Origin: Candidatus Bathyarchaeia archaeon
GTDB taxonomy: Archaea; Thermoproteota; Bathyarchaeia; Bathyarchaeales; Bathycorpusculaceae
Assembly: GCA_038883655.1 (NCBI GenBank)
Contig: JAVZLQ010000004.1
Location: forward strand, 168,468-232,467
Direction of reading: 5' to 3'
Length of the DNA: 64,000 nt
Within the stretch, counting starts at the first letter, position 1. Each line of letters starts with the position of its first letter. Position numbers and translations under genes: made by a program. Below the pieces are notes generated by a model. That model searched no databases. It saw only the letters and a list, made by a program, of their open reading frames with translations, and had not been told where the DNA came from. Below are positions 2 to 24,058 of this stretch, one piece after another.

Positions 2-355
2 TGCATAGTCGATGAGGAACAGGGGCGCGTAATCTTCGTTGTAAACGAGGGACAAATAGGCGTAGCCATTGGAAAAGGCGGAAGAAACATCCGCACTTTG
101 GAGTCAATGACTGGAAAGAAACACGAAATAATCGAGTATTCAGAAGATCCTGTTCAATTCATAAAAAATGCCCTAAAACCAGCAATAGTTAAGGAGGTTC
201 GCCTCACGGAGAGAACCGATGGAAAGAGAATAGCCGTTGTTACTGTTAATCCGCGGGATAAGGGTGTAGCCATTGGCAAGAACGGAAGAAACGCTGAAAG
301 ACTGCGTTTTCTAGCAAAACGATATTTTGACATACAAAACGTAAGCATAACCTAG
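2..355 (+). CDS. nusA: Archaeal NusA (KH-domain transcription factor), 5'-truncated by the window edge
   Basis: Frame is open from base 2 (CIVDEEQGRVIFVVNEGQIGVAIGKGGRNI...). Two KH GxxG motifs: AIGKGG and AIGKNG. Confidence 0.95.
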   Translation, partial: CIVDEEQGRVIFVVNEGQIGVAIGKGGRNIRTLESMTGKKHEIIEYSEDPVQFIKNALKPAIVKEVRLTERTDGKRIAVVTVNPRDKGVAIGKNGRNAERLRFLAKRYFDIQNVSIT

Positions 356-22106: not shown

Positions 22107-22436
22107 ATGACAAGAAAGAGTAAATTCCAATACAAAATATGGATAGAATATGAAGGAAAACCAGTTTTGGGCAAAGGTGGAGCTCAAATCCTAGAACAGG
22201 TAGAAAAGGAACAATCAATTTCACGAGCTGCTAAGAAACTTGGCATGTCCTACCGTTATGTTTGGAGTTACCTAAAAAAGATTGAGAAGGTATTGGGCGA
22301 GCCAGTCATAGAAACTTATAGAGGCGGCAAATCTGGTGGGGGAGGCGCAAAACTAACAAAGCAAGGCAAAAAACTGCTTGAGGATTATAAACTCGCTGAG
22401 GATTATTTGGCTGAAGTTCTCGCAAGAAAATTTTAA
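22107..22436 (+). CDS. ModE N-terminal-type winged-helix regulator
   Basis: LGKG...LE....SISRAAKKLGMSYRYVW...RGGKSGGGAKLT. Confidence 0.9.
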   Translation: MTRKSKFQYKIWIEYEGKPVLGKGGAQILEQVEKEQSISRAAKKLGMSYRYVWSYLKKIEKVLGEPVIETYRGGKSGGGGAKLTKQGKKLLEDYKLAEDYLAEVLARKF

Positions 22437-22761: not shown

Positions 22762-23313
22762 CTATTCCACTACGTATCTGTAGGCTATGTGTTCTCCTGC
22801 TGTCGGGCTTTTTCTTATTATGCGCAATATGTCGCCTGGTTTGGCGCCTATGGCTTTTACGGCTGGGTCTGAAGCCTTTATTTGTGGAAGTTGGTAAGGC
22901 TTAACCTTGTACTGCGCAAGAAGCTGTTCCCTTTCCTCTTCTGTTAGGATTTCGTGTTTTGGAACAAGTTTGTGCTCGAAAATGTCGAATGCTGGGAAAG
23001 TTTTTGGCAAGAGTTCAATTTTCTTCTTTTTTGCGCCTTGTTTGACGGCATGCGTGTACCTTCCGCCAGTGATTACTATTCCTTTTTCAATGCCTTCTTC
23101 CTTCATCACTTTCTGCATGCGGTTTATTGATGTTATTCCAACAGCGCTGTCTTCTGGTATGCACCATACTAGGGCTTTTTCCTTCTCCTTTGGAATTTCA
23201 ACGAGAAAGCCAACAGCATCCTCATATTTTTCCCTTTTAATGAGCTTGTAACCCCTAAGTTTTATGAGCATCTTTGCCTTTCTTTCCTCTAAACTTTCTT
23301 CTTCCAAACTCAA
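22762..23313 (-). CDS. rpoH: RNA polymerase subunit RpoH/Rpo5 with an N-terminal Rpb5-like extension
   Basis: C-terminal [10 protein letters not shown]...LPQIKASDP...[26 protein letters not shown], plus about 105 extra N-terminal residues. Confidence 0.92.
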
Positions 23314-23380
23314 ACCTAAAACCCCTTTTATGAGGGCAATCGAAACCTTAACAAGCCATTAAACCTTTAAACTTTGCGCT

Positions 23381-24058
23381 TCAAATGCGCAGCACAACAT
23401 TATCAACATACTTTTTCATGATCTCCGCAAACTCGGCGATTGTTGTTGGTGCGTAGGGCTTGACCACCCTAAAGTTTTCGTCAAAAGCGTTGTCTGGAAT
23501 AAACTGTTGGAAGGCAAATGTTCTTGCACCTTTAATAATTTCGCCTATTTTCTGTACATCTTCAGCGTCAACAAATCCTGGAACAACGGTTGCCCTAAAC
23601 TCGTATTCAACTTTTCCAGCTTTCAAAATCTCTATCGTGCGGAGTAGGTTCTCCACGCTTTTTGCTCCCAGCTTCGGATACTTTTCCAGTGATGTTTTCA
23701 CGTCTAGGGCAACATAATCTGCATAGGCGAGGCACTGTTCAAGCACTTGTGGATAAAACCCGTTAGTGTCAAGCTTGACCATGAAGCCTCTATCCTTGAG
23801 TTTCTTCAGGAATCGCGGCATCTCCTTGTGCATTGTTGGCTCTCCACCAGTCACAACAACAGCGTCAACAAATTTCTTGCGGCTTTCCAGAATTTGAAGC
23901 GCAGCTTCTTCTTGCAGAAATGGTGGTTTTGGATCTACGACTATGCGCCAGTTGTGGCAGTACGGACAGCGCAAGTTGCAGCCCGGCGTAAAAAGCACTG
24001 TTGCAACTTTTTCTGGGAAGTCTATGAGGCTTGTCTTTTGGATTCCGCTGAACTTCAT
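23381..24058 (-). CDS. nrdG: Anaerobic ribonucleotide reductase activase (radical SAM)
   Basis: SLIDFP, GCNLRCPYCHN, TGGEPT, KLDTNG; adjacent to nrdD. Confidence 0.93.
   Translation of the reverse strand: MKFSGIQKTSLIDFPEKVATVLFTPGCNLRCPYCHNWRIVVDPKPPFLQEEAALQILESRKKFVDAVVVTGGEPTMHKEMPRFLKKLKDRGFMVKLDTNGFYPQVLEQCLAYADYVALDVKTSLEKYPKLGAKSVENLLRTIEILKAGKVEYEFRATVVPGFVDAEDVQKIGEIIKGARTFAFQQFIPDNAFDENFRVVKPYAPTTIAEFAEIMKKYVDNVVLRI

Follow-up and report, generated by a model that had tools for sequence, protein, structure and literature searches.

Rpb5 is common to all three nuclear RNA polymerases (RNAPs), and its two-domain shape is treated in textbooks as a eukaryotic invention. The gene described here is an rpoH (rpo5) gene of a Candidatus Bathyarchaeia archaeon, located at positions 22762..23313 (minus strand) of a stretch of 64,000 nucleotides (contig JAVZLQ010000004.1, positions 168,468 to 232,467; hereafter the window, in which all coordinates are given unless stated otherwise), and its product carries an additional domain ahead of the archaeal RpoH sequence. 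In the passages of the literature that deal with the N-terminal module of Rpb5, it is described as specific to eukaryotes and as having been added to the archaeal RNAP core (PMC3906176, PMC1802627), while its family, Rpb5_N, has already been assigned to the PD-(D/E)xK fold as an inactive member confined to eukaryotes (PMC3424549, PMC1185551), with its distribution given as Eukaryota (PMC3424549). Likewise, a 2014 paper presents archaeal RpoH, in the passages concerned, as devoid of an N-terminal extension (PMC3906176), and the passages of a 2026 paper that models bathyarchaeal Rpo5 mention no N-terminal domain, figures aside (PMC13257274). Neither the article by Eme et al. (2023) itself nor four of its supplements refers to Rpb5, RpoH, Rpo5, PF03871 or PF01191. 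Hence, sequences of this kind are already public, labelled as subunit H with Mrr_cat, but an archaeal RpoH with an N-terminal domain is without prior description in the literature searched. Taken together, the evidence set out below indicates that the gene probably encodes the sole Rpo5 of its genome, in a long form whose N-terminal domain has the fold of a dead Mrr-type nuclease, is predicted to pack as in Rpb5 and would take a lower-jaw position.

The coding sequence comprises 183 codons plus stop and begins with TTG, as supported by the open reading frame (ORF), by profile matches and by the start codon of relatives. Its C-terminal RpoH/Rpb5_C assembly domain (aa 109-183; 22765..22989, minus strand), recognised by Pfam, NCBIfam, phmmer and Foldseek, matches Pfam RNA_pol_Rpb5_C over aa 109-181 (E 1.4e-32, 111.7 bits versus a cut-off of 23.5), and the 183-aa protein matches the NCBIfam RpoH equivalog (E 1.7e-34, 117.4 bits versus a cut-off of 83). 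An earlier interpretation of the window made from its letters alone (the sequence-only reading) had described an intact RpoH C-terminal domain with about 105 extra residues ahead of it, which is borne out. The TTG start is kept in nine of ten relatives inspected, with GTG in the remaining one, in-frame stops occur shortly 5' of the start in most of these ten, and the internal Met15 is replaced by Val in 9/9 relatives of lower identity, which argues for a genuine domain instead of a mis-called start; its conserved helix begins at residue 8. Within the C-terminal domain, H114, D149, P150 and R179 are invariant in 26/26 sequences, and a motif-based reading of the numbering suggests that H114, D149 and R179 correspond to H147, D182 and R212 of yeast as studied by Zaros et al. 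The best sequence matches of this domain in the Protein Data Bank (PDB) are subunit H of Thermococcus (E 4.5e-27) and of Pyrococcus (E 8.9e-27), the phmmer match to Thermococcus kodakarensis subunit H amounts to 98 bits over 76 residues, and Foldseek reports 65% identity to Thermococcales RpoH chains.

The N-terminal domain (aa 8-103; 23005..23292, minus strand), delimited by Pfam, structure prediction, alignment and substitution rates, is recognised by Pfam as Mrr_cat (E 2e-9, 38 bits versus a cut-off of 21) and as NA-iREase1 (PF22722; E 2e-8, 34.5 bits versus a cut-off of 27), with RpoH as the fused partner instead of NACHT. The same families match 21/21 and 20/21 diverse N-domains, respectively. 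Modelled alone with AlphaFold2 (AF2), the domain folds as alpha-beta-beta-beta-alpha-beta-alpha-beta at a predicted local distance difference test score (pLDDT) of 92.4. In the alignment, the catalytic Asp and the Lys of the (E/Q)xK motif are found in 0/21 bathyarchaeal N-domains each, as opposed to 50/50 members of an Mrr set, the latter figure holding by selection since this set was chosen by regular expression for the motifs D[GA]G[IVLAY]D and [EQ]xK; its aligned columns read DGG(V/I)D...QCK. Ten eukaryotic Rpb5_N sequences are likewise devoid of both residues in the aligned columns. As judged from these alignments, the N-domain is a dead nuclease, which would be unable to cut DNA because the metal-binding Asp and the (E/Q)xK Lys are lost.

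Likeness to eukaryotic Rpb5 extends over both domains. The by-eye alignment to human RPB5 given in the sequence-only reading was reproduced by phmmer, which aligns residues 50-181 with residues 74-209 of the human protein, although a single-sequence search of the PDB with the N-terminal part alone returned RPB5 as best match at E 0.1, a value too weak to decide. With the A2 profile of the N-domain only, the top eight PDB matches were all RPB5, the best at 9.4e-7, with mammalian RPB5 at 1.5-1.8e-4 and plant RPB5 at 7.7e-4, and no solved Mrr nuclease was retrieved at E<=10. The full-length model, built without templates, reached a pLDDT of 87.9 and a predicted TM-score of 0.76. In the Foldseek check proposed with the sequence-only reading, it superimposes on eukaryotic RPB5 (8uhd_E) over both domains with a query TM-score (TMq) of 0.80, a root-mean-square deviation of 3.5 Å and 32% identity in 199 columns, where the match in packing is to be read with the caveat that AF2 may have learned Rpb5 in training; archaeal RpoH chains cover just 75 columns of the model at a TMq of about 0.4. 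Thus, the dead PD-(D/E)xK domain is predicted to pack on Rpb5_C as in solved Rpb5 structures.

Several results weigh against an N-domain of specifically eukaryotic type. Pfam RNA_pol_Rpb5_N (PF03871) matches 0/21 N-domains at E<=10, including that of the window protein, and in hhalign comparisons the bathyarchaeal N-domain is far nearer to active Mrr nucleases (99.4%, score 119, 92 columns, E 1e-21) than to Rpb5_N (95.3%, score 49.6, 50 columns), the latter score being equal to that of Rpb5_N against Mrr (49.6, 41 columns). In addition, the N-domain model alone is structurally closer to Mrr-like and NucS folds (Z of 10.4 for AF1548, 1y88; 9.8 for NucS, 2vld; 8.9 for AspBHI) than to plant RPB5 (7eu0_E, 8.0) or the Rpb5 homologue of African swine fever virus (ASFV; 8q3b_E, 7.1), and Foldseek with the N-domain alone ranked EndoMS first. 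In a search of 1.84 billion representatives with the N-domain profile, 31 of the best 150 matches had an RpoH C-domain, no fewer than 50 were bona fide Mrr nucleases and one was a true Rpb5. However, Pfam Mrr_cat also detects a genuine Rpb5_N sequence (P0211) at E 1.7e-13, so that setting Rpb5_N against Mrr_cat, the test put forward with the sequence-only reading, is a false dichotomy: the grouping of the N-domain with Mrr nucleases, which that reading had regarded as fatal, is real but not decisive, since Rpb5_N is Mrr-like as well. On the strength of the hhalign scores among the three groups and of this Mrr_cat match, the bathyarchaeal N-domain, Rpb5_N and Mrr form one family by sequence, of which the domain in the window is a conservative member, and the N-domain would be homologous to the Rpb5 jaw domain, both being dead Mrr-like domains. 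Hence, the designation as a eukaryote-type jaw stands with respect to architecture, fold and detectable homology, but not with respect to the closest sequence family. P0211 (456 aa) is a eukaryote-type Rpb5 with three tandem Rpb5_N domains followed by one Rpb5_C, either a real duplication or a gene-model artefact.

The long form is widespread among Bathyarchaeia. Within the same order, 37 of 41 relatives were matched, 36 of these over both domains; the other four, two of which are 97-98% complete, gave no match to this query. Across the class, 143/151 genomes were matched. According to a hand count that rests on the matches listed, the match spans both domains in 80 of them and is limited to the C-domain, in frames of 75-154 aa, in 61 (2 matched genomes, which belong to 11 further rows, fall outside the count). 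The genome surveys were confined to the phylum of the window, leaving out Asgard, DPANN and Euryarchaeota; among its non-bathyarchaeal genomes no long form was found, 53/53 carrying Rpb5_C in frames of 77-138 aa, and the N-domain profile gave no RpoH-type match outside Bathyarchaeia in a sample of 251 genomes. Metagenomes yielded 1597 related proteins at E<=1e-5, and precomputed Pfam labels show Rpb5_C together with Mrr_cat on 120/120 of those listed, NA-iREase1 also being present on 119. Against L017, the N-domain and the C-domain have ratios of nonsynonymous to synonymous substitution rates (dN/dS) of 0.029 and 0.028, respectively, and the ratio does not exceed 0.09 in more distant pairs where dS is estimable. 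The N-domain is thus as constrained as the C-domain, and about half of the sampled bathyarchaeal genomes share a conserved long form that is under purifying selection.

Some further proteins came to light in these surveys. A record titled as an acidobacterial metagenome-assembled genome (L069) carries a bathyarchaeal-type long rpoH (70% identity), probably by a binning error. Three RpoH homologues (P0149, 481 aa; P0188, 436 aa; P0267, 378 aa) contain two to three tandem N-type domains and Lys-rich linkers ahead of Rpb5_C, the profile of which is covered at positions 1-62 of 73 in P0149 and P0267 and 1-72 in P0188. Apparent fusions of the N-domain to Smr or to C-termini without known family (P0122, P0125, P0128) were discarded as frameshifted or chimeric gene calls, because each starts the RpoH C-domain and then diverges.

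With regard to function, the C-terminal 75 residues would by homology act as the ordinary archaeal assembly domain that anchors the subunit on the largest subunit, while the N-terminal 100 residues, the Mrr-family restriction-endonuclease fold that has presumably lost its cutting activity, would protrude from the lower jaw next to the channel for downstream DNA, a position suggested by the predicted Rpb5-like packing of the two domains. With a net charge of +6 (median +4, n=26), the N-domain is basic and would most likely contact downstream DNA or serve as a docking surface; eukaryotic Rpb5_N is mostly acidic (-7 to +4), and the functions of the two may accordingly differ. Assembly of long-form Rpo5 into RNAP is a prediction drawn from docking the N-domain alone against RpoA (aa 780-1276), which scored 0.62 compared with 0.00 for the best of three controls, a mark reached by 116/157 solved complexes and 2/215 mismatched pairs. 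The docking runs agree in at least 91% of contacts with a partner pLDDT of at least 77, and at the interface they place residues 100-103 as well as helix alpha1 with its invariant R20, though the score may have been driven by the solved structures of Pol II. The N-terminal helix and the end of the Rpb5 module are critical according to the passages on yeast genetics in PMC1802627. Two points count against the docked position: the predicted contact site, RpoA 1134-1167 or about 1314-1347 of yeast Rpb1, falls in the alpha44-46 bundle, where Rpb5's C-terminal globe binds (Zaros et al., in the part concerned), and the model may have parked the N-domain on this vacated site because the C-domain was left out. 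The docking hence lends weak support to some contact with RpoA and not to its position.

Beyond the group that contains the window protein, the N-domain tree rooted on Mrr, whose outgroup was taken from the profile's own best matches, separates two clades of RpoH-fused domains: clade I holds the window protein together with most Bathyarchaeia, and clade II also contains stand-alone paralogues and, nested within it, the eukaryotes (support of 84-87 in the Shimodaira-Hasegawa-like approximate likelihood ratio test, SH-aLRT). Subgroup IIa-1 (P0171, P0176, P0153, P0155, L165, L182) can be aligned with Rpb5_N over 94 columns, helix alpha1 among them (score 78, E 2e-13), as compared with 33-51 for depth-matched subsets of clade I and 36-42 for those of Mrr, and is by sequence the closest detectable relative of Rpb5_N. 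Its best identity to sampled Bathyarchaeia is 44%, its contigs are short, with uninformative neighbours on L165, and scans of viral contigs gave no relatives. Subgroup IIa-2 (P0156, L231, L232) has no special similarity to Rpb5_N (score 23.1). On metagenomic contig L231 (2500..7786 of that contig), a long-form rpoH stands side by side with a gene for Heimdall-type ESCRT-IIIB and with one of OST48/WBP1-like type, this rpoH again not being beside rpoB. The ESCRT-III protein matches solved Heimdallarchaeota ESCRT-IIIB at E 3.4e-29, the OST48_N gene scores 55.8 bits versus a cut-off of 36, and neither gene was found in 151 Bathyarchaeia genomes, whereas the contig's tyrosyl-tRNA synthetase (TyrRS) matched 61/61; an OST48_N family search gave 0/251, but its positive controls were silent too. 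Among prokaryotes, WBP1/OST48 is reported only in Heimdallarchaeia including Njordarchaeales, according to the passages concerned in Eme et al. (PMC10307638). On account of these markers the L231/L232 contig is probably Asgard, an assignment that falls short of proof since the identity of its TyrRS to that of Bathyarchaeia reaches 58%.

The stand-alone proteins of about 190-250 aa (L135 157..795 (-), G251; P0169, P0178, P0170, P0184, P0173) consist of a dead Mrr-like domain followed by a Cys-rich C-terminus without Pfam family. The Asp is kept in 11/11 of them and Arg replaces Gln. Besides some Bathyarchaeia, at least one further class of the phylum contains them; beyond rpoH, the genome of the window gave no match.

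Whether the fusion is common to bathyarchaeal Rpo5 and eukaryotes or convergent is left undecided by the trees. The position of the eukaryotes is not settled by the C-domain tree (78 columns) or by the full-length tree with short forms. In trees of two-domain proteins only, constraining the eukaryotes to group with clade I raised the log-likelihood by 12.0 over a quick free tree (p of 0.77 in the approximately unbiased test, p-AU), and grouping them with IIa raised it by 15.0 (p-AU 0.83), so that neither constraint is rejected; because the quick search missed better trees, the free topology was not relied on. The proposal of the sequence-only reading that the protein is an archaeal precursor of two-domain Rpb5 is therefore neither shown nor refuted, Mrr being closer than Rpb5_N to the N-domain and the tree with eukaryotes, suggested in the same place, accepting them with either archaeal group.

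One possibility, to be held tentatively and a little short of an even chance, is a single ancient fusion of a dead Mrr domain to RpoH from which both the archaeal long-form Rpo5 and eukaryotic Rpb5 descend, in which case the jaw predates eukaryotes and the short-form archaea lost it or never got it. Both sides share the donor family, the domain order and the loss of the catalytic Asp and Lys; the whole chains superimpose at a TM-score of 0.80; IIa-1 is singled out by its score of 78 over 94 columns; eukaryotes nest among RpoH-fused domains in the Mrr-rooted tree; and a long form also occurs on the contig with Heimdall-type ESCRT-IIIB and the OST48-like gene. This is opposed by Rpb5_N scoring no higher against clade I (46.7-49.6) than against active Mrr nucleases (49.6), by the lack of special similarity in the probable Asgard group IIa-2, whose assignment is itself not proven, by the fact that the long form was found neither in the 53/53 other genomes of the phylum nor in the 61 short-form Bathyarchaeia, by the indecisive C-domain and full-length trees, by an Mrr outgroup drawn from the profile's own best matches, and by an insertion of about 20 residues that eukaryotes possess and all archaeal forms lack. 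In its fullest version, which is possible without being probable, the jaw would be an archaeal invention that arose by a single pre-eukaryotic fusion, with Bathyarchaeia, the probable Asgard L231/L232 and IIa-1 as survivors and with Rpb5 derived from an IIa-1-like form that gained the insertion later.

The same uncertain standing, somewhat below even, applies to a convergent origin, whereby Bathyarchaeia, and perhaps other archaea, separately captured a local dead Mrr-like domain onto RpoH, and the resemblance to Rpb5 would stem from one type of module having come more than once to fill a particular structural niche. The much greater proximity of the N-domain to Mrr than to Rpb5_N, the silence of PF03871 and the archaeal type of the C-domain all conform to this, the stand-alone bathyarchaeal paralogues with a Cys-rich C-terminus constitute a plausible local donor pool, and the patchy distribution within the class, coupled to relocation of the gene, is as expected of a lineage-specific event. 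On the other hand, convergence requires the same family, order, inactivation and inter-domain packing twice, the RpoH-fused domains of IIa-1 are nearer to Rpb5_N than any Mrr nuclease retrieved, and the constraint joining eukaryotes with clade I was not rejected.

That Bathyarchaeia recently acquired an Rpb5 gene from eukaryotes or giant viruses is very improbable. Atlas clusters of compact two-domain Rpb5 homologues, mostly with Nucleocytoviricota labels (language-model score 0.91-0.96), provide a lead only, whereas the C-domain matches Thermococcales RpoH best (98 bits/76 residues as against 82-86 bits/132 residues for eukaryotes and E 2.9e-11 for ASFV), the eukaryotes form a separate long-stemmed clade (SH-aLRT 98-100), three scans of viral contigs gave no relatives, and the archaeal forms are devoid of the eukaryotic insertion.

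The genomic setting bears on a further proposal of the sequence-only reading, namely that the gene is a second paralogue which builds an alternative RNAP alongside the canonical short H. The assembly of 1.42 Mb (19 contigs) contains exactly one Rpb5_C match, which is this gene. The rpoB-rpoA-L30e/L7Ae-NusA(KH) operon ends at the left edge of the window with the 3' end of its closing NusA-like KH gene (2..355, plus strand), and by context it is the operon that rpoH left: 5' of rpoB, where a short rpoH had been proposed to be sought, there is none in this genome, a V4R-domain gene on the opposite strand being found instead, while the long-form gene lies 27 kb from rpoB on the opposite strand, after nrdD-nrdG. 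Since this is the sole Rpb5_C match and no rpoH precedes rpoB, the gene is the genome's Rpo5 and not an extra copy. Other Bathyarchaeia do carry two or three long-form copies (three matches in G111, two each in G033 and G172), but no extra match to the C-domain only was found in the 80 long-form genomes among the matches listed, and a second paralogue for an alternative RNAP is accordingly very unlikely. What weighs on the other side is the state of the assembly: at a completeness of 93% and a contamination of 6.5%, a short rpoH may, with low probability, have been missed. G048 holds an additional, degraded long-form rpoH copy with internal stops (C11:326391-326910).

The placement outside the rpo operon and behind nrdG had been noted correctly in the sequence-only reading, which took the gene to sit there alone; its place, however, is not accidental, as nrdG stands immediately 5' of rpoH in 55/91 related loci. 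In the window, this neighbour is an nrdG-type radical SAM activase (23381..24058, minus strand; Pfam Radical_SAM 2.7e-25). Whereas rpoH adjoins rpoB in 5/5 short-form genomes, it is unlinked from rpoB in 6/6 long-form genomes (27-820 kb off or on another contig), and the long form probably arose or became fixed within Bathyarchaeia together with the move of the gene from the rpoH-rpoB operon to behind nrdDG. The relocated gene appears to have its own promoter: the 67-nt nrdG-rpoH spacer contains a TATA-like box, GTTTAAAGGTTTAA (23359..23372, minus strand), 46-59 nt 5' of the TTG, the same motif being present 5' of rpoH in ten relatives inspected, and a GGGG purine motif (GAGG in relatives; 23322..23325, minus strand), possibly Shine-Dalgarno-like, 9-12 nt 5' of the start. 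Given both elements, transcription from a promoter within this spacer is likely. A short palindrome, TGCGC-ATTTGAA-GCGCA (23374..23392), spans the nrdG stop codon just 5' of the TATA-like box. Downstream of rpoH lies a 109-aa helix-turn-helix gene (LysR-type HTH_1; 22107..22436, plus strand), which is conserved in 60/91 related loci, and the 97-aa GNAT-like ORF between the two occurs in only 1/91.

Archaeal rpoA is usually split into an A'/A'' pair. Here it is a single ORF of 1276 aa (L015 12227..16057, G000:C4, just left of the window), and Rpb1_5 matches fall in open frames of 1278-1335 aa in 9/10 Bathyarchaeia checked, the frame of G129 having 747 aa. A fused rpoA was rejected as a correlate of the long form, as it is present in 4/5 short-form and 5/5 long-form genomes; it is a class-wide trait unlinked to the long RpoH.

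Least probable of all is an artefact of gene calling or assembly that merged an active Mrr-type nuclease or defence gene with rpoH, for although Pfam labels the N-terminal part Mrr_cat well above the cut-off, a single unbroken frame is kept in hundreds of contigs, both catalytic residues are missing from all 21 N-domains, the N-domain is under the same constraint as the RpoH domain and the predicted two-domain model is confident.

The preferred interpretation thus remains that of a genuine long-form Rpo5, the only one of its genome. A widespread and constrained two-domain archaeal Rpo5 would mean that the archaeal enzyme can carry a lower-jaw module, and the archaeal long forms constitute concrete candidate ancestors or analogues for the jaw of Rpb5, through which the question of its origin becomes testable. 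The automated label 'Mrr_cat' on long-form RpoH proteins hides this RNAP feature.

Compared with known systems, the N-domain finds its best sequence family in Mrr_cat (PF04471)/NA-iREase1 and its best fold matches in AF1548 and NucS, but it lacks the catalytic Asp and the (E/Q)xK Lys as well as a zinc-ribbon or NACHT partner and is fused to an RNAP subunit instead. With canonical archaeal RpoH/Rpo5 (about 75-85 aa; PDB 4qiw_H, 8cro_H) the protein has in common the C-domain and its occurrence as sole genome copy, and it departs from it by the extra 100-residue domain and by its location outside the rpoH-rpoB operon. The compact two-domain build is shared with the Rpb5 homologues of giant viruses (ASFV 8q3b_E, Foldseek E 7.8e-14), and the giant-virus-type Atlas clusters (172-195 aa) are likewise labelled Mrr_cat or NA-iREase1 more often than Rpb5_N, although ASFV Rpb5 is far more divergent in sequence (22% identity). 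In Sulfolobales, Rpo13 is described, in the passages concerned, as an extra archaeal element that lies beside Rpo5 and contacts double-stranded DNA (PMC13257274); this role resembles the one proposed for the N-domain, but Rpo13 is an unrelated, separate small subunit, likened here by description and as a functional analogue only. Eukaryotic Rpb5/RPABC1 (PF03871 + PF01191), finally, is about 25-30 residues longer than the archaeal long form, its insertion between helix alpha1 and the sheet being found neither in the window protein nor in the Mrr sequence aligned beside P0272, and its N-domain is mostly acidic instead of net basic, while the C-domain of the window protein is of archaeal type; yet both proteins share an N-terminal dead PD-(D/E)xK domain followed by Rpb5_C.

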